Assembly (NCBI GenBank): GCA_033763455.1
Contig: JANRKO010000019.1
Location: 128,001-192,000 of the forward strand
Reading direction: 5' to 3'
Source: Polyangiaceae bacterium
GTDB lineage: Bacteria > Myxococcota_A > Polyangia > Polyangiales > Polyangiaceae
Length of the DNA stretch: 64,000 nucleotides
Position 1 is the first letter of the stretch; each line of letters starts with the position of its first letter. Below, piece by piece: positions 39,211 to 47,549 of the stretch. A program made the position numbers and the translations under genes. Below the pieces are notes generated by a model. The model did no database searches. It saw nothing but the letters and a program-made list of their open reading frames with translations, and was not told the DNA's origin.

Positions 39211-40974
39211 ATGGATCCCGAATACGCGAATCTCGTCGAACTGTTCGAGCAAGCCTGCGCCAAGTTCGATGCTCGCGAGTTGTTCGGAACCAAGCGGGGT
39301 GGCCGCTGGGAGTGGATGACGTTCGGGCAGTTCAAGGCCGACGTGGATAAGTGCCGGGGCGGCCTCGCGCAGCTGGGAGTGAGAGCCGGGGATAAGGTGG
39401 CGATAATCTCCAATAATCGCGTGGAATGGGCGGTGTTGGCGTACGCCACCTATTCGCTCGGGGCGGTTTACGTACCGATGTATGAAGTACAGCCCAAGGA
39501 TGAATGGGCTTTCATCTTGCATGATTCCGACGCCAAAGTGGTGGTCGCAGCGACTCGGGTGATTGCGGAAACGTTGGAAGGCTTGCGAACCGGCTGTCCC
39601 AAGTTGGAAAAGATCATCAGCTTGGAGGGCCCCGGTGGCTCCCTCTCTTACGAAGCCCTGCTCAGCCAGGGCGCCAGAACACCCAAAGATCCCGTGTATC
39701 CAGCGTCGAGTGAGGTTGCCGGCTTCATCTACACGTCGGGCACCACCGGGATGCCCAAGGGCGTAGTCCTCTCGCACTCGAACATCTGCTTCGACATTTG
39801 GGCCTCATTTTCCTGTTTTGACTTTGGCCCGCTAGACCGCTCGTTAGCGTTTTTGCCCTGGGCACACTCTTACGGCCAAGTAGCAGAGCTGCACGGGCTC
39901 CTTAGCCGCGGCACCTCGATCGCGATCAACGACGAGGTACCAAACCTCGTCGCCAACTTGGCCGAGGTGCGGCCAACCGTGCTGGTTGCCGTACCAAGGA
40001 TCTTTAACCGCATCTACGACGGCATCCAGAAACAGATGGCGGCCAAGCCGGGCGCCATTCGCGCGTTGTTCAAAAAAGGCGTCGACGTAGCCGGAAAAAA
40101 GAGCCGGGGTGAGAGAATTGGCACGCTCGATAGCATGGCCCACGCCTTGGCGGATAAGCTCATTTTCTCCAAGGTTCGAGCCAAATTCGGCGGCCGGTTG
40201 CGGTTTGTGGTGAGCGGAAGCTCGGCACTCAACAAAGACGTCGCCATGTTCATCGATGCGCTCGGAATCGAGGTTTATGAAGGATACGGCCTCAGCGAAA
40301 CGAGCCCCGTGGCAGCGAGCAATTACCCCGGGCACCGCAAGATCGGCAGCGTTGGCCTACCGCTACCAGGCGTCGAAATTCGTATTGATAAGAGCGTTTC
40401 CGATGATAACCACCAGGGGGAGATCTTGATCAAAGGTCGCAATGTAATGCAAGGTTATCACAATCGCCCGGAAGAAACGGCCCTAGTACTCCCAGGTGAC
40501 GGTTACCTCCGCACAGGAGATCTCGGCTACCTTGATGAAGACGGTTACCTCTTCATCACTGGGCGCCTGAAAGAGCAATACAAGCTGGAAAACGGTAAAT
40601 ACGTGGCGCCGGCACCGCTCGAAGAGGACCTCAAGCTTTCGCCGTTCATTCTAAATGCCATGCTGTACGGCGCCAACCACGCCTACAATGTGGCCCTCAT
40701 CGTGGTCGACAAAGTAGCAGTTGCCGAGTGGGCCAAAGAAAATGGCGTTGAACTAGGGGACCTCTCGAAGAACCAGAAGCTGAACGAACTTCTGTTTCGT
40801 GAGATTGAGACCTATGGGTCTAAATTCAAGAGCTTCGAGCGGCCCAAGAAGCTCTTCATCACCGACGAAGATTTTAGTACAGAAAATGAGCTTCTAACCC
40901 CATCCCTCAAGATCAAACGGCGCAATGTGTTGGCCAAATATGGCAAACAATTAGAGGCACTCTATTCGGAGTAA
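39211..40974 (+). CDS. Long-chain fatty acid--CoA ligase
   Basis: YTSGTTGMPKG, EGYGLSET, TGDLG, LTPSLKIKR. Confidence 0.92.
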   Translation: MDPEYANLVELFEQACAKFDARELFGTKRGGRWEWMTFGQFKADVDKCRGGLAQLGVRAGDKVAIISNNRVEWAVLAYATYSLGAVYVPMYEVQPKDEWAFILHDSDAKVVVAATRVIAETLEGLRTGCPKLEKIISLEGPGGSLSYEALLSQGARTPKDPVYPASSEVAGFIYTSGTTGMPKGVVLSHSNICFDIWASFSCFDFGPLDRSLAFLPWAHSYGQVAELHGLLSRGTSIAINDEVPNLVANLAEVRPTVLVAVPRIFNRIYDGIQKQMAAKPGAIRALFKKGVDVAGKKSRGERIGTLDSMAHALADKLIFSKVRAKFGGRLRFVVSGSSALNKDVAMFIDALGIEVYEGYGLSETSPVAASNYPGHRKIGSVGLPLPGVEIRIDKSVSDDNHQGEILIKGRNVMQGYHNRPEETALVLPGDGYLRTGDLGYLDEDGYLFITGRLKEQYKLENGKYVAPAPLEEDLKLSPFILNAMLYGANHAYNVALIVVDKVAVAEWAKENGVELGDLSKNQKLNELLFREIETYGSKFKSFERPKKLFITDEDFSTENELLTPSLKIKRRNVLAKYGKQLEALYSE

Positions 40975-41061
40975 GCCCAATACCCCCGAAACCTAAACTA
41001 GCGACGGAAGCCAGCTTTGATTTCGGGGGTTGTGCTTGTGGCACGTGGTCAGCTTTCGCCA

Positions 41062-42174
41062 TCATGCGCCACTCTTGCCGTTGGTGAGAAGCTGCGCCGG
41101 GAGCAGTGATTGGAGCCCGTCGGCCCCAACCACCACCTTCACTTCTTGGATGTGCTGAGCGATCTCTTTCATCGCTTCCAGCTCCTTCAAGCGCAAAAGT
41201 ACCGGGTTTGCCTCCATAACCTTGGCCGTGTTCGCCAACGACCGCGTAGCGGCCGTTTCTTCACGACGTAAGATCACGTTGGCCGCAGCTTCCTTTTCGG
41301 CCTCGATCACGCGATTCAACAGGGCTTTCATTTCACCCGGCAAAACCACGTCTTTGACACCCACATGTTCGATCTTGACTCCCAGCGCCGTGGTGCATGC
41401 CGTAACCCGTCGCTCCATGAAGCGTGTCATTTCGTCACGCCCTTCGAGCAATTGATCGAGGGTTACCCCGGCCACGTATTCACGCGCGGCAAGCTGGGCT
41501 GCCGTGTAGACAGAATCCCGTAGGTTCTGCACCTTGGTTGCAACCACCACCGGATCAGAAACAGCGTATTCGGCCGTTAACGTCAAACGCAACGTCACCT
41601 TATCTCGCGTCATCAATTCCTGACCAGCAATGGTTACTTCCTGGCGCCGCATATCCACGACGCCAATCTCGGCCTTGGCTCCAGGGTGCGTCCACAACTT
41701 GTATCGGCCCGGCGGCAACACAGAAACGAAGCGCCCCTGCTCGTAACGCAAGCCCATTTGGTAGGCCAATACCGTTACGTCAATGTACTCATTGGACGGA
41801 ATCAACCGCTCCAACTCTGCCGACATTTCCGGCAAAGGCTGAGTAACATCGAACACCGAAAGCTGCACAGAAGCATCTACGGTCCAATAACGGTGCACCC
41901 CCGGGCGCAAAAATGCCACCGGCACACCATCTTTGAACAGGACACCTCGTTCACCAGAACCAATCACAACCTCACGAAACCAAGCAGAAGGCAGTTTTGC
42001 CCGGACTTCCGGCAGGGCTGAAAACAGCAAAACACTGGTATCGAACCGTTGCTCAGTGAGCCGCAACGACCAAACCCGATAACGGCCCGGGCCAAGTGCA
42101 GCTACAGGTAAGCCGTCCTTGAAAAGAACCACTCGTTCGTTTAACTTCACACGAATCAATTTTGACCACAACAT
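41062..42174 (-). CDS. SPFH/band-7 (slipin family) protein
   Basis: Three ER..LF.DG...L.PG.Y repeats; GQELMTRDKVTLRL; REETAATRSLANTAK..E.NPVLLRLKELE; GAGG SD. Confidence 0.9.
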   Translation of the reverse strand: MLWSKLIRVKLNERVVLFKDGLPVAALGPGRYRVWSLRLTEQRFDTSVLLFSALPEVRAKLPSAWFREVVIGSGERGVLFKDGVPVAFLRPGVHRYWTVDASVQLSVFDVTQPLPEMSAELERLIPSNEYIDVTVLAYQMGLRYEQGRFVSVLPPGRYKLWTHPGAKAEIGVVDMRRQEVTIAGQELMTRDKVTLRLTLTAEYAVSDPVVVATKVQNLRDSVYTAAQLAAREYVAGVTLDQLLEGRDEMTRFMERRVTACTTALGVKIEHVGVKDVVLPGEMKALLNRVIEAEKEAAANVILRREETAATRSLANTAKVMEANPVLLRLKELEAMKEIAQHIQEVKVVVGADGLQSLLPAQLLTNGKSGA

Positions 42175-42189
42175 GGGTCACCTCTTGGG

Positions 42190-42652
42190 TTGATGGACTC
42201 CCACCTTCGGCGTGAGCACCATGCCCGCGCCTTTGGAGATCGTCGATTGCTGGTATTTGCCGATACCGTCGGCTTTCGGCGAGCCCGCCTTTGGCCCTAG
42301 TAGTAGGGAGAACGGGACTCGGAAGATGTGCGGGGGCTCTGCAGACTGCTTGAGCCCGAAATTAGTGGCTCCAGAGGTTCAAAGCCCGGCGCCTAGGTTG
42401 AAGCGCAGTGTGAAGCCGCCGTAGCGGCCTCCGAAACGCTTCTCGCTTGAGCGTCTTGGGTCCGATGATTTGCGCGAAATCACTGCGATCTCACCCGGTT
42501 GCAGTCAGCGGGCGCCGAGGCGATGGCCGAAGCTTGCGAGCGAAATGTACGTGAGTTTGGGCAAAACTCGGGTCCGTTCGCCTTCCCCCAATGGCTGCGG
42601 AAGGGCTTTGAAAACCTCTGGAAACCTGGTGTGAATGCCTTTTTAAGGCCAG
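42190..42652 (-). ncRNA. Putative large structured ncRNA / 5' leader of the slipin gene
   Basis: 18-bp long-range helix (42603-42622 with 42370-42387) plus many hairpins, including GCCGC-UACG-GCGGC; no credible ORF. Confidence 0.55.
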
Positions 42653-42653
42653 G

Positions 42654-42722
42654 CCCTTTGCTCTACCCGATGAGCTACAACTCCGTGAGGAGAAGATCGG
42701 ATTCGAACCGACTACCGAAGGG
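42654..42722 (-). ncRNA. Circularly permuted tRNA-like module (YrlA/Y-RNA-like architecture)
   Basis: CCCTT-CGGTA-GTCGG TTCGAAT CCGAT-CTTCTCC TCAC GGAGTTG-TA-GCTC ATCGGGTA GAGC-A-AAGGG: T arm, closed acceptor stem, D arm, anticodon-like stem. Confidence 0.75.
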
Positions 42723-42724
42723 TT

Positions 42725-42864
42725 CTGCCGTGACAGGGCAGTGTCATCCATGACAAGCATGCTTCCGGGACACAACTACCGGACATCCATCGGTGACTCA
42801 CGAGGAGACCAATGCACGCAGTGTTGCGCCGTTTTGAAGCAAGCTTCGCGGGATTCGAACCCGC
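42725..42864 (-). ncRNA. Rearranged tRNA-Asp(GUC)-like element
   Basis: T arm GCGGG TTCGAAT CCCGC (42864-42848) lies upstream of a D-like hairpin and the anticodon arm CTGCC CTGTCAC GGCAG (42741-42725). Confidence 0.5.
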
Positions 42865-42866
42865 GG

Positions 42867-42940
42867 CACACAAGGCAAGATTCGAACTTGCACTCTACTG
42901 ATATAGAATCAGCGGCCTCTACCTTTTGGGCTACATGTGT
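42867..42940 (-). tRNA. tRNA or tRNA-like gene with CUA anticodon (amber suppressor-like)
   Basis: ACACATG TA GCC CAAAAGGTAGA GGC C GCTGA TTCTATA TCAGT AGAGT GCAAG TTCGAAT CTTGC CTTGTGT G; 6/7 acceptor pairs; no encoded CCA; U37 atypical. Confidence 0.75.
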
Positions 42941-42993
42941 TAATTGGTTGCATACGGTTGGTCCTCTTGCTTTGAATATCGAGCCGGGAAATG

Positions 42994-43025
42994 AAAAAAG
43001 CCGCCGAGGTAACCCTGGGCGGCTT
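42994..43025 (-). terminator. Rho-independent terminator (attenuator)
   Basis: AAGCCGCC CAGG GTTA CCTC GGCGGCTT TTTT. Confidence 0.85.
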
Positions 43026-43050
43026 CACACAGAAACACTGCGTAAACGCC

Positions 43051-43179
43051 CTAGGGGGAGCCCCGAAAATCGCGAAAATTGCCGACTAAGCTGCGCTCGC
43101 GGCGTGCACCACAGACGAAAGCCATGCCAAGATTTGGCAGCTGTTGTGCTGTGATGGTGAAACGGTGGAAGTGCTTCAT
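43051..43179 (-). CDS. Putative leader/attenuator peptide (42 aa)
   Basis: MKHFHRFTITAQQLPNLGMAFVCGARRERSLVGNFRDFRGSP-TAG between promoter and terminator; stop codon lies within the antiterminator strand. Confidence 0.6.
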   Translation of the reverse strand: MKHFHRFTITAQQLPNLGMAFVCGARRERSLVGNFRDFRGSP

Positions 43180-43190
43180 GAGGAGGCCGC

Positions 43191-43218
43191 AGAGTACGGA
43201 TCTAGAAAAACAAGTCAA
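43191..43218 (-). promoter_or_regulatory. Sigma70-type promoter
   Basis: TTGACT-16 nt-TACTCT, ending 11 nt before the leader ATG. Confidence 0.6.
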
Positions 43219-43304
43219 CACAATATCGCTCAGGCGTGTTTTTTTTACGAGGTGACGTTGCTCGCGATCCTCATTTCAAAGCTCCACCATGCAACACAGA
43301 GTCC

Positions 43305-43997
43305 CTAGAGGCGAGCCGTCCAGACGCGTTCAGCGCTGCCGGGGCGAGTCACGAACAAGCGCAGTGTTACCGGAGCCCGTTCACCCATGAGATAAAGCAC
43401 GCGGATTTTGTGCTCCCCGGGAGCCAGCGGGATGCTGCCCATCGCATTATGAGCCTTCCTGCTGTCGTCGTTGTTCACGACTTGGCGGCCATTAATCCAC
43501 AGGATGGCGGCGCCCTGGGTCTTTAACCGAAACTTATAGTTGCCAGCCGCCGAAACGGAGAATCTGCCAGTGTAGTTAATGGCAAACCAGTCGTAGCGCT
43601 CGGCGATTCCTGGGAAACCCGAAAAGTAGCGCTGAGCTACGTCCAAGCTATCCACGAACAAGCGACCTTGCGGGATGCACCGTTCAAGGCGCAGCAAAGA
43701 CACTGTGTTAGGCTTAACAAAGCACACTGTACCCGCGAGCGCTGCTTTGCGGCTGTGGCCAAACAAGGTGCTCCCCGACACCACAGGTACGCGACCACCT
43801 TTGTGACTCGCCCAACGCTCGCCCATGCCAGCGGGCGTGCCGCCTTGCTCGACACCGTACCCGTCCATTCTGTTGCGGCTAGCAGTTCGGATCCGTTCCC
43901 CCAACGACTGACCATGGGCCGCGCCAGCTAAGCTCAGCACTCCAAGTGCCACGCGACTCCCCCACTTCCACAACGTCCCGATCACCATGCGTTTCAC
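43305..43997 (-). CDS. Secreted PA14 domain protein
   Basis: Signal peptide; FAINYTG.F....GNYKFRL...GAAILWING..VV.ND. Confidence 0.75.
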   Translation of the reverse strand: MKRMVIGTLWKWGSRVALGVLSLAGAAHGQSLGERIRTASRNRMDGYGVEQGGTPAGMGERWASHKGGRVPVVSGSTLFGHSRKAALAGTVCFVKPNTVSLLRLERCIPQGRLFVDSLDVAQRYFSGFPGIAERYDWFAINYTGRFSVSAAGNYKFRLKTQGAAILWINGRQVVNNDDSRKAHNAMGSIPLAPGEHKIRVLYLMGERAPVTLRLFVTRPGSAERVWTARL

Positions 43998-44151
43998 TTC
44001 ACTAGCACAAGTGCCCAGTGGACCGCGCCATCAGCTAAGACATGCTGTGGAAACAATTAAGCAAACTGCCCGAAAACCCTAGAGAAATCCTGACATTTCG
44101 AGTGCTGGTTTCCCTTGCTATGCCGGGAGCGGGCGTCTATCTCCGTGACTC

Positions 44152-45603
44152 ATGGATCTCAAACACTACGAAGTGGATCCGAAGAGTTACGACGAAATGT
44201 TCGACGCGAGCGGCGAGGTTCGGCCGGCCTATCGGGAACTTGCGCGGCGGCTCGGCGAAATGTCCGGTGAAGATTTCACCCGGCGGCAACGCACGGCAGA
44301 TATCTTGCTGCGAAACCAGGGCGTCACGTTCACCGTGTACTCGGACGACGCGGGCATTGAGAAGGTTTTTCCGTTCGACCCCATCCCGCGCCTGATGCCT
44401 GCCGAAGAATGGAGCCTGATTGAACGCGGCTTGATTCAGCGCATTGAGGCCTTGAACCTTTTCATTGCTGACATCTATGGGGATCAACACATCCTCAAAG
44501 ACAAAGTGGTTGATCCTGAGCTCATCTTAGGCGCCTCATTTTTCCGCCGTGAGATGATGGGGTTTAGGCCGCCTCGTGGGATCTATACCCACATCACCGG
44601 CACAGATTTAATTCGCGATGCCAACGGAAAATTCGTCGTCCTAGAAGACAATGCTCGGAACCCAAGCGGCGTGAGCTACGTGCTTGAATGCCGCGCAGTT
44701 CTGAAACGTGTCTTCCCGCTCTTGTTCGAAACGTACGGAGTGCGCCCGGTTGAAGATTACGCCAATTGGCTCCGCGACATGATGCAATTTGTAGCGCCAC
44801 GAGGCTCATCCAATCCAAGCATGGTGGTGCTGACGCCGGGCATCTACAATTCGGCGTACTTCGAACACAGCTTTTTAGCCCGCCAAATGGGTGTACCGCT
44901 CGTCGAAGGTCGAGATTTGGTCGTAAAAGATGGAATGGTGTGCATGCGCACGATTACCGGGCTGCAGCGGGTGGATGTTATCTACCGGCGCCTGGATGAT
45001 GACTTTCTGGACCCACTTATCGGTCGCCCTGATTCGGTATTGGGCTGCGCGGGGCTTTTCTCGGCGTATCGCAGTGGGGCGGTGACGCTCGTGAACGCAC
45101 CAGGCACAGGCGCCGTGGACGATAAAGCTGTCTACCCGTTCGTGCCGGACATGATTCGTTATTATCTTAAGAGTGAACCTATCATTGACAACGTTCCAAC
45201 CTATTTGGCAACCCGCCCGGATGAGCAGAAGTACATGCTCGAGAATATCCACGAACTGGTGATCAAACAGACCGACGCTTCCGGCGGCTACGGCATGTTG
45301 ATTGGCACGCACTCTACGGCAGAGGAACGCGAAGACTTCAAACGGCGCATCAAGGCTAAGCCCCGCTCCTACATTGGCCAACCCACTATCAGTCTCGGCA
45401 AACATCCCACAGTAATCGACGGTAAGCTGGAAGGGCGGTGCGTCGATTTGAGGCCTTATGTCCTTTATGGCGAGCGAATTTCGGTCATTCCAGGAGCCCT
45501 CACCCGGGTGGCACTCAGGAAGGGCTCTCTCGTTGTTAATTCAAGCCAAGGTGGTGGCTACAAAGATACCTGGGTGCTCACTGATAAGGGAGGCGCAGCC
45601 TAA
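44152..45603 (+). CDS. Circularly permuted type 2 ATP-grasp protein
   Basis: [52 protein letters not shown]. Confidence 0.93.
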
Positions 45604-46529: not shown

Positions 46530-47549
46530 ATGCTGCTGTTCATCAAACACCTCACCGAACTCACGTATTCGGAGCCCATCACCGAAACGGTGATGGAAGT
46601 TCGCATGACTCCGCGAAACGATGCCCACCAAGTGCGGCGCGCGTTTCGCCTGGAGGTGGGGCCCAGCGCCACACCTTTCGAACACACAGATTGGCTCGGT
46701 AACCGCGTGCAGCAGTTCTCCATTTTGCCCCCGCACGATAAAGTCGTGATCTTGGCTCGGAGCGTGGTGGATACGCAGCCAAGGCACTCAGTGCTCGCAG
46801 ATGTGAATCGCGGGTCAGTGCCTCCGCTCGACCATCGAATCGGCGACTATTTGCGCTTCACCGGGCCGGTTGTGGACGTTCACAACCTCGACCGTTTGAT
46901 TCAAAATTTGGGGCTCGGGGCACCGGCGTCGCCTGAAGTTATTCTGCAACGAGTCGCGTCAAACCTGCGCGATCACGTGGAGTACCGTAAAGGCGTTACC
47001 ACGAGCGCCACGGCGATCGACAAGGTGCTCGAGCAGCGCGCTGGTGTGTGCCAGGATCTGGCTCACGTGGCCATTGGGATCTTGCGCAAGCTCGGCGTAC
47101 CAGCTCGCTACGTGTCGGGGTATTTCTATCGCGCGGATGGAAACAGCGAGATGGAGAGCCATGCTTGGTGCGAGGCGCACTTCCAGGGCACAGGTTGGCT
47201 CCCGATAGATCCCACCCACAAAACACTGGCGGGCGAAGGGCACGTTGCTATCGCGAGCGGTCGCGATTTCTCTGACGTTTCACCCAATCGCGGCGTCTAT
47301 CGCGGCAAGGGTGAAGAGAGCCTGCGCGTAAGAGTCACCGTGCAAGAGGTGCAAGAGGTACCCGAAGGCTTATTTGCCGTAGGCTCACCCGAAGTCGAGG
47401 TGCAGCCAATTGGAGGAGGCATGCTTCCCACCCACCGCGAAGCTCTCGAATACCAGCAAGAACAGCAGCAACAGCAGCAACAGCAGCAACAAGTACAGCA
47501 GCAACAGCAGCAACAAGTACAGCAACACCAATATTCGGCTGTGCACTGA
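46530..47549 (+). CDS. Transglutaminase family protein with poly-Gln tail
   Basis: GVCQDLAH, HAWCE, IDPT triad; C-terminal Q-tract. Confidence 0.92.
   Translation: MLLFIKHLTELTYSEPITETVMEVRMTPRNDAHQVRRAFRLEVGPSATPFEHTDWLGNRVQQFSILPPHDKVVILARSVVDTQPRHSVLADVNRGSVPPLDHRIGDYLRFTGPVVDVHNLDRLIQNLGLGAPASPEVILQRVASNLRDHVEYRKGVTTSATAIDKVLEQRAGVCQDLAHVAIGILRKLGVPARYVSGYFYRADGNSEMESHAWCEAHFQGTGWLPIDPTHKTLAGEGHVAIASGRDFSDVSPNRGVYRGKGEESLRVRVTVQEVQEVPEGLFAVGSPEVEVQPIGGGMLPTHREALEYQQEQQQQQQQQQQVQQQQQQQVQQHQYSAVH

Follow-up and report, generated by a model that had tools for sequence, protein, structure and literature searches.

The only tRNA gene in the 64,000-nt stretch of a Polyangiaceae bacterium genome analyzed here (assembly GCA_033763455.1, contig JANRKO010000019.1, positions 128,001 to 192,000; hereafter the window) carries the amber-reading anticodon CUA. 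Comparison with related loci suggests as the best explanation that this gene is the former terminal tRNA-Leu(CAA) of a transferable tRNA array, which has been kept as the tRNA-shaped first domain of the RNA of an operon encoding a slipin-like protein, with the CUA anticodon as a tolerated by-product; our confidence in this explanation is evenly balanced. The original prediction, made from the letters of the sequence, had placed three readings side by side, namely a conditional amber suppressor, an uncharged mimic or decoy, and a decaying pseudogene. The present data favor the mimic or relic side, because the same slot holds in relatives either the last tRNA of an array or a non-decoding cloverleaf and because A73 and the purine at position 37 were lost, while actual suppression of UAG appears less probable.

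The cloverleaf with the anticodon CUA on the reverse strand is a real tRNA-shaped gene. ARAGORN reported it at 42865-42940 (cta at position 35, corresponding to CTA at 42906-42904), and the Rfam tRNA model RF00005 matched 42867-42940 over its whole length (model positions 1-71 of 71) with 50.3 bits compared to a gathering score of 29 (E 8.3e-08 in the 64 kb search); with this score, four arms and an anticodon loop of 7 nt the gene belongs to the RF00005 family. Segmentation (7/2/4/9/4/1/5/7/5/5/5/7/5/7/1) resolved an acceptor stem of 7 bp (ACACAUG/CUUGUGU) with one mismatch, U6·U67, followed by U8 and A9, a D stem of 3 bp plus C13·A22 with A14 and a D loop AAAAGGUAG that contains G18 and G19, an anticodon stem of 5 bp including the wobble pair G27·U43, the anticodon loop UU-CUA-UA with U33 and U37, a variable loop of 5 nt, and a canonical T arm (GCAAG-UUCGAAU-CUUGC). 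The 3' end reads G73 and then CCG, i.e. a full CCA is not encoded. Altogether, 20 of the 21 stem pairs are standard or wobble pairs. The full cloverleaf with its canonical T loop, the 3-bp D stem, the short variable loop, G73, U37 and the missing CCA had all been described correctly by the original prediction, and the acceptor mismatch is its sole omission.

Despite this complete architecture, the gene departs from the rules for a decoding tRNA in several respects. With a minimum free energy of -19.4 kcal/mol and a GC content of 0.47 it has the weakest fold and is the most AT-rich tRNA of its own genome, where the values of the remaining 33 class-I tRNAs lie between -26.7 and -38.2 kcal/mol. 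An amber suppressor is expected to present CUA in a 7-nt loop with U33, as found here (UUCUAUA), and a purine at position 37, where U37 is found instead. A73, a leucine anticodon and a long variable arm, as expected for a bacterial tRNA-Leu, are all lacking.

The parentage of the gene became apparent from a set of relatives, which comprised 160 loci with slipin homologues of 50-70% identity (80 from genomes and 80 from metagenomes; 161 loci together with the window). Upstream of the slipin gene and on the same strand, ARAGORN detected 538 array tRNAs. The genome loci contribute 347 of them (28 of 80 loci, longest run 29) and the metagenome loci 191 (34 of 80 loci). The D-arm motif RYCCAA..GGNAGAGGY was present in 17 of these tRNAs; one is a Leu-like tRNA of 91 nt that ARAGORN called Arg, and the remaining 16 are tRNA-Leu of only 74-78 nt, which therefore lack the long variable arm that is normally found in bacterial tRNA-Leu. 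All arm lengths of the CUA tRNA equal those of 14 distinct short tRNA-Leu from related arrays, and its best global matches are Leu(aag) with 68% and Leu(caa) with 66% identity. In two loci, L042 and L109, a short tRNA-Leu(CAA) forms the end of a five-tRNA run, and the window tRNA aligns directly onto it, with the spacer, mimic and leader blocks being homologous as well (alignment A1). D-arm motif, arm lengths and terminal position thus place the gene in the short-variable-arm tRNA-Leu class as defined here. Hence, the remark on a Leu/Tyr-type D stem in the original prediction was a good lead, the parent being a short-arm tRNA-Leu. A tRNA-Tyr(GUA) as parent, which would need only one change (G34 to C), was rejected, because the D-arm motif is of Leu type only and no tRNA-Tyr is found among the 30 best matches.

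Within this class the window tRNA is an outlier. All 14 distinct short-arm tRNA-Leu possess A73 and a purine at position 37, compared to G73 and U37 in the window; a pyrimidine at position 37 is found in only one of 46 tRNAs of the own genome, which is the CUA tRNA itself, and in 16 of 532 array tRNAs. A fold as weak as that of the CUA tRNA occurs in one of 441 class-I array tRNAs. Four of its acceptor pairs are changed on both sides relative to L042, the stem having therefore been maintained. The anticodon is not conserved, since none of the 538 array tRNAs in the related loci has a stop anticodon (cta, tta or tca), and the combination of a Leu D arm with a YUCUA pattern was found in one of 401 genomes of the order, namely that of the window. 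A housekeeping tRNA-Leu(caa) of 88 nt is encoded elsewhere in the own genome, which makes the island copy redundant.

The arrays showed further peculiarities. Genes for tRNA-Leu (aag, caa, cag and taa) of 74-78 nt with A73, a Leu-type D arm and no long arm are present in L034, L036, L037, L039, L042, L056, L107, L109, L144, L149 and L152. Unorthodox anticodon loops are frequent among the array tRNAs of L031-L110 and L116-L195: C33 replaces the universal U33 in 42 of 532 cases, and the pyrimidine at position 37 (the 16 of 532 cases) is recurrent in tRNA-Asp(GUC).

The window tRNA occupies a defined slot in a recurring module. In Polyangiales, this module begins with a promoter and a short leader open reading frame (ORF) whose stop is UAG. 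Behind the terminator/antiterminator comes either a tRNA array or one tRNA-like element, which N73-CC and a T-arm-like hairpin connect to a YrlA-like tRNA mimic; a long leader then extends up to the slipin (SPFH) gene. A long tRNA run like the L-array of Anabaena is not found in the window, where one tRNA stands compared to 5-29 in relatives; the window copy is therefore a remnant and not an array. Directly 3' of the tRNA lies a conserved junction composed of CC, the T-arm-like hairpin (42848-42864; -13.6 kcal/mol, z -2.45) and GA, which follows a tRNA or tRNA-like element in 40 of the 161 loci including the window. A search pattern for the hairpin without the CC and GA flanks returned 128 matches, ordinary T arms among them, and was not used. 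The interpretation of the hairpin as remnant of an integration (att) site or as stump of a deleted tRNA was rejected, because it is a conserved module part in these 40 loci.

What precedes the junction differs between loci. Array loci have an ordinary tRNA there, which is of Leu, Val or Tyr type and carries A73, while in 26 of the 40 junction loci the preceding element received no tRNA call at all. At position 73 before the junction, 20 elements carry A, 12 carry U and 8 carry G, and none of the seven other G73 elements has a standard isotype call. For 13 relatives without an array, RNAalifold predicted a four-arm cloverleaf plus the hairpin, with compensatory changes in 12 of 29 pairs; in the corresponding loci (alignment A2; L041, L129-L140, L157) this cloverleaf is mostly not called by ARAGORN. 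Its T loop reads UUCGUUA, and at the place of the anticodon arm the third arm forms a large loop with a conserved GUGUG and has no anticodon loop. Since a covarying cloverleaf without anticodon fills the slot in relatives, the sequence comparison argues that the slot before the junction is selected for a tRNA-like fold even where decoding is impossible. In one locus (L127:1230-1275), three tandem units of ~14 nt, GTCACGTTCAAAGA, stand directly before the tRNA-like element, the unit repeating the 5' acceptor strand of the element.

Downstream of the junction, the order T arm, closed acceptor-like hairpin and D arm characterizes a putative circularly permuted tRNA mimic. The YrlA model RF02553 matched it with 27.4 bits (E 0.0016 in a 1 kb search), which is below the gathering score of 69, and the same place was matched in all six tRNA-less relatives with 30.1-48.6 bits, again below the gathering score; a search pattern for the element was positive in 27 of 80 loci. 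No match to a Ro60/Rsr (TROVE) gene was obtained in the whole genome. With this low score and without a TROVE match the mimic is not assigned to the YrlA family, and Rsr/Ro60 was rejected as a partner of the element. The following leader contains a small conserved hairpin at 42259-42273 on the reverse strand, GCCGACGGUAUCGGC, whose pattern GCCGACGG(C/U)AUCGGC is also present in G005, G026, G028 and L109. In relatives this hairpin lies ~15 nt before the ribosome-binding site and the slipin start, while in the window the annotated ATG follows ~85 nt further on.

Upstream of the tRNA, the window contains a candidate attenuator. The context TTGAC...GATCCGTA(C/G)A(C/G)T before the leader ATG is shared with L032, L122, L123, L131, L137 and L153. 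The motif TAGGCGG or TAGGGCG before GCCGCC...GGCGGC and a U-rich tail gave 24 matches, and in 22 of them an ORF ends exactly at this TAG. Moreover, 12 distinct relatives have a conserved start M-(N/D/A/K)-A-x-V in frame with the TAG at seven different lengths (34-50 codons). The complete layout of promoter-like site, leader ORF with a conserved start M-N/D-A-V/L-V-Y and UAG in the antiterminator strand, found at 43051-43218 of the window and followed by a GCCGCC/GGCGGC terminator, recurs in L032, L119, L122, L123, L127, L129, L131, L135, L137, L138 and L153. The predicted antiterminator 5' strand CCCUAGGGCG (43047-43056) includes the leader UAG and pairs with CGCCCAGGG, while the terminator stem GAAGCCGCC/GGCGGCUU (42998-43026) is followed by six U (42994-42999). 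Folding of the whole stretch gave the terminator form as minimum (-28.2 kcal/mol, z -3.5), and removal of the 3' strand resulted in formation of the antiterminator (-26.1 kcal/mol, z -5.2). The same layout is seen in L119, L123 and the 24 motif matches. A scan of 42000-43400 for consensus sites reported no promoter and no terminator, the latter because its loop comprises 12 nt; the sites named here are based on conservation and folding. Among 32 loci with at least five tRNAs, 12 have a terminator hairpin within 400 nt before the first tRNA, which is tRNA-Tyr(GUA) in 9 of the 12; in 15 other array loci no hairpin was seen and the first tRNA lies less than 300 nt from the locus edge, hence, the start of the array may have been cut off.

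It is likely from this arrangement that a ribosome at the leader UAG masks the antiterminator strand and permits the terminator to form, while an earlier stall would free the strand and allow the operon to be read. Such a logic would fit the induction of the Anabaena L-array by translational stress. In this regard, the word conditional in the original prediction gains some support from the position of the gene behind the terminator/antiterminator, while the preservation of CUA that a suppressor would call for is not seen in any relative. No RNA contig from the public runs spans the CUA tRNA; this carries no information on expression, since tRNAs are captured poorly and contigs do not equal reads. 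The shares of the remaining runs were too small to indicate a habitat. One RNA-library contig from another study, with three differences, covers 42689-42851, from the hairpin to the T arm of the mimic and thus just downstream of the tRNA; DNA carry-over is possible for this library, and contigs give no transcript ends.

The CUA tRNA sits on an accessory segment. The fadD/acyl-CoA synthetase gene (39211-40974) and the circularly permuted ATP-grasp gene (44152-45603) are separated by 3177 bp in the window, whereas only 146-176 bp lie between them in all three same-genus genomes. Homology to these congeners picks up by 44131 according to BLAST and at ~44044 by eye. A 351-nt stretch around the tRNA found a full-length match in one of 41 related genomes, which is the own genome. 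The coordinates of all features of the segment are compiled in Table 1.

Table 1. Positions of the features on and around the accessory segment of the window, with strand and supporting evidence
Feature	Position	Strand	Evidence
Extra DNA of ~3 kb with slipin operon and PA14-domain gene, between fadD and circularly permuted ATP-grasp gene	40975..44043		Congener comparison, BLAST
Slipin-like SPFH/Band 7 gene, 370 aa, stop TGA	41062..42174	-	Pfam PF01145, 102.6 bits
Long conserved leader, from mimic to slipin start	42175..42655	-	Blocks in alignment A1 and upstream of slipin in G005, G026, G028
YrlA-like circularly permuted tRNA mimic (T arm, closed acceptor-like hairpin, D arm)	42656..42720	-	Rfam RF02553
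CC + T-arm-like hairpin (GCGGG-UUCGAAU-CCCGC) + GA	42846..42866	-	Conserved junction directly 3' of tRNA
tRNA-shaped gene, anticodon CUA	42867..42940	-	ARAGORN; Rfam RF00005; arm lengths; alignment with tRNA-Leu(CAA) of L042 and L109
Alternative hairpins (terminator/antiterminator), predicted	42994..43056	-	Folding, conservation
Leader ORF, 42 codons, TAG at 43051-43053	43051..43179	-	Conserved motif and start
Putative promoter TTGACT-16 nt-TACTCT, 11 nt before leader ATG	43191..43218	-	Conserved context
PA14-domain gene	43305..43997	-	On extra segment

Taken together, the CUA gene looks like an intermediate, a complete cloverleaf that is no longer held to the rules for a decoder. According to the proposed mechanism, transcription of the operon would require that ribosomes do not get as far as the leader UAG, so that the antiterminator can form. 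Once transcribed, the tRNA-shaped part would fold, and tRNA end-processing enzymes would recognize it, with RNase P acting at the 5' side and 3' processing at N73-CC, and processing at the junction would set the 5' end of the downstream tRNA-mimic RNA. The anticodon CAA may have become CUA by one change, A35 to U; redundancy, the usual silence of the gene and the loss of recognition by leucyl-tRNA synthetase (LeuRS) due to G73 presumably explain why this change was tolerated. A73 is a determinant of bacterial tRNA-Leu and G73 acts as LeuRS antideterminant in tRNA-Ser, according to the available part of PMC9976931. If the tRNA were charged at all, G73, A1-U72, G10 and U35 would point to glutaminyl-tRNA synthetase (GlnRS), and U37 would make it a poor decoder.

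Several observations weigh against such a role as structural domain. Processing at the junction, the lack of charging and the domain function are all inferred. The cloverleaf is near intact, with U8, A14, G18G19, U33, the 7-nt anticodon loop and the UUCGAAU T loop, and no structural bar to aminoacylation or decoding is apparent from its modeled fold. The maintained acceptor stem would fit a working tRNA and a domain kept for its shape equally well. Moreover, GlnRS is encoded in the genome (713 bits), and G73, the weak 1-72 pair, G10 and U35 form a part of the Gln identity set. Six tRNA-less loci scanned with Rfam contained no tRNA relic; a full tRNA is therefore not needed there, which leaves the role of the CUA tRNA unaddressed. 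Finally, no close strain carrying the island was available, the best slipin identity being 70% in genomes and 69% in metagenomes, so that selection on this particular sequence is not measurable.

One alternative, which we regard as unlikely, is that of a working but weak amber suppressor made on demand: the attenuator would open when translation falters, and the tRNA would be processed, CCA-tailed, charged, plausibly with glutamine, and read some UAG codons. Apart from the canonical cloverleaf and the presence of GlnRS, it is favored by G73, G10, U35 and the weak 1-72 pair, which are elements of the Gln identity set of bacteria; in E. coli, glutamine is inserted by an amber tRNA-Trp and by an amber tRNA-Lys mutated to G73 (PMC9976931). 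In Anabaena, translational stress induces the array tRNAs, of which 23 of 26 are charged (PMC8421152). The position behind the leader-ORF terminator/antiterminator would restrict the cost of suppression to stress conditions. However, such silence would lower the cost of any nonsense anticodon and might explain the persistence of a neutral CAA-to-CUA change equally well. The identity elements are also mixed. The Leu set is broken by G73; of the Gln set, G73, G10 and U35 are present, while G2-C71, G3-C70, A37 and U38 are not, the second and third pairs being C2-G71 and A3-U70; of the Trp set, G73, A1-U72, A9, C34 and A36 are present, while C35 and G2-C71 to G5-C68 are missing. Further points against suppression are U37, where 45 of 46 own tRNAs and 516 of 532 array tRNAs have a purine, the weakest fold of the genome and the lack of a relative carrying CUA (0/538 array tRNAs; pattern of Leu D arm and YUCUA in 1/401 genomes, the own one). 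In addition, among the 3398 ORFs with 300 codons or more in the whole genome, 28.5% terminate with TAG, in line with the earlier statement that it is a normal stop here. A local target was not found either, since no TAG precedes the slipin start in its frame, where the stop before the ATG is TGA; TAG read-through into the slipin frame was rejected for this reason.

Neutral decay is about as doubtful as a working suppressor; the gene would then be a pseudogene without any role, the last one left over from an array that was lost. Such decay would account for the single tRNA where relatives reach 29, for the nonsense anticodon, G73, U37 and the acceptor mismatch, and for the lowest GC content and stability of the genome; degenerate tRNA calls with 2- or 4-base anticodons do occur at other loci (5/538), and 3 of 26 Anabaena array genes are pseudogenes in the available part of PMC8421152. 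The preserved pairing is difficult to reconcile with neutral decay, because 20 of 21 stem pairs are intact despite only 66-68% identity to the nearest relatives, and so is the slot itself, which is always occupied before the CC + hairpin junction and covaries in relatives.

A special form of suppression appears improbable to us, in which the CUA tRNA would be a stress-switched suppressor of its own leader UAG. As soon as small amounts of the tRNA are present, read-through there would add 34 codons, across the terminator, up to a TAA overlapping position 1 of the tRNA; it would thereby block the terminator and create a positive-feedback latch, which under translational stress would also extend the ~28% of proteins whose genes end with UAG.

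It is very improbable that CUA results from an assembly or sequencing error in an ordinary tRNA-Leu(CAA). The genome is a draft of 92 contigs (6.56 Mb, 93.7% complete), and only one DNA run, possibly of the source sample, provided a contig over the tRNA, with a word depth of 5.7; this contig is identical to the window over 42571-42968. Even with position 35 corrected, G73, U37 and U6·U67 would remain, hence, a single error cannot restore an ordinary tRNA-Leu. The least probable explanation, practically negligible, is a tRNA-Pyl or another dedicated recoding tRNA as the ARAGORN label implies, because ARAGORN gives this name to any cta anticodon, the anticodon alone setting it. A tRNA-Pyl is compact, with a 6-bp anticodon stem, a variable loop of 3 nt and a small D loop without G18G19, in contrast to the 5-bp anticodon stem, the 5-nt variable loop, G18G19 and the canonical UUCGAAU T loop of the window gene. 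The best PylS_Cterm match in the whole assembly reached 22.9 bits compared to a cut-off of 178.15, so that the earlier claim of an absent pyrrolysine system holds at the level of PylS, with pylBCD not included in the search; TAG is, moreover, a common stop. The tRNA-Pyl identity was rejected on these grounds, and the label is to be regarded as an annotation error.

Several known systems resemble parts of the locus. In the attenuators of the trp, his and leu operons, ribosome occupancy of a short ORF decides between antiterminator and terminator. The window locus shares with them a short leader ORF upstream of alternative hairpins; unlike them it has no run of codons for a single amino acid, the N-terminus and a UAG inside the antiterminator strand being conserved instead, and it precedes tRNA genes and a tRNA mimic but not biosynthetic genes. 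The E. coli suppressor supP is an amber suppressor derived from tRNA-Leu(CAA) by one anticodon change, i.e. the same single change of A35 to U that leads from CAA to CUA here. The combination of A1-U72, G73 and CUA is likewise found in the glutamine-charged amber tRNA-Trp of E. coli, as given in the available part of PMC9976931. However, the E. coli amber suppressors are laboratory mutants of housekeeping tRNAs with purine 37 and an intact identity set, whereas the window gene has U37 and G73 on a Leu-type body with a short variable loop. Arrays of phage tRNAs with Sup(CUA) also have an amber-anticodon tRNA in or beside an array while TAG is still a stop; in contrast to these, the window gene is chromosomal, has no counterpart among 538 related tRNAs and lacks features of a decoder.

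The closest parallel to the arrays is the L-array of Anabaena, a set of supernumerary, horizontally spread tRNA genes that are silent until translation is impaired and include some pseudogenes (available part of PMC8421152). Supernumerary tRNA runs, with up to 29 genes in one run in relatives of the window locus, are common to both systems, whereas the window has one tRNA left, and its slot lies between a leader-ORF attenuator and a tRNA-mimic/slipin unit; PMC8421152 does not contain the terms leader, attenuat-, terminator, SPFH, stomatin or band 7. For YrlA RNAs, the order of T arm, closed acceptor-like stem and D arm is the defining feature, together with a Ro60/Rsr gene within 4 kb, and in M. 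smegmatis RNase P cleaves YrlA, to which CCA is also added (Chen et al. 2014, PMC4201824). The mimic next to the CUA tRNA shares this arm order, and the M. smegmatis RNA provides a precedent for the action of tRNA enzymes on such domains, but this genome lacks Ro60/Rsr, and the Rfam score of the mimic does not reach the gathering value. Unlike the mimic, the CUA element is a complete cloverleaf without permutation and hence not a YrlA. A description of a slipin/tRNA-array operon was not found in the searched literature, supplements being outside its scope, and neither was, among the papers listed, a myxobacterial or Sorangium-group tRNA array, a CUA suppressor on a bacterial chromosome or a link of YrlA with stomatin.

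In this operon, a leader that presumably senses ribosomes is linked to supernumerary tRNAs and tRNA mimics as well as to a slipin gene. If the gene has indeed been kept for its shape, the locus would represent a tRNA midway between a decoder and a structural tRNA mimic, and arrays and anticodon-less cloverleaves in one and the same slot would lay out a route for the origin of tRNA-like RNAs across living genomes. If the suppressor reading were true, the locus would be a natural case of an amber suppressor under conditional expression, in a bacterium that uses TAG as the stop of many genes.

Among the neighboring genes, the PA14-domain gene of the extra segment was rejected as module part, because none of the 160 related loci has such a gene beside slipin; elsewhere in the own genome six paralogous matches with 35-41% identity were obtained for it (contigs C59 twice, C67, C66, C39 and C26). 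The PADLOC defence-system models did not match the slipin or the PA14 protein. With default settings, tRNA-Trp(CCA) and tRNA-Lys(CUU) were not among the ARAGORN calls for the 92 contigs. Since a Thr-Tyr-Gly-Thr cluster is situated at the very start of contig C17, the assembly probably lacks the tuf/tRNA-Trp region; a relaxed threshold for the missing tRNA-Trp was not used because of hundreds of spurious calls. Finally, a transglutaminase-like protein (46530-47549) ends in a long glutamine run, QQEQQQQQQQQQQVQQQQQQQVQQ, encoded at 47440-47549 on the forward strand, and the next long ORF overlaps this stretch in another frame.

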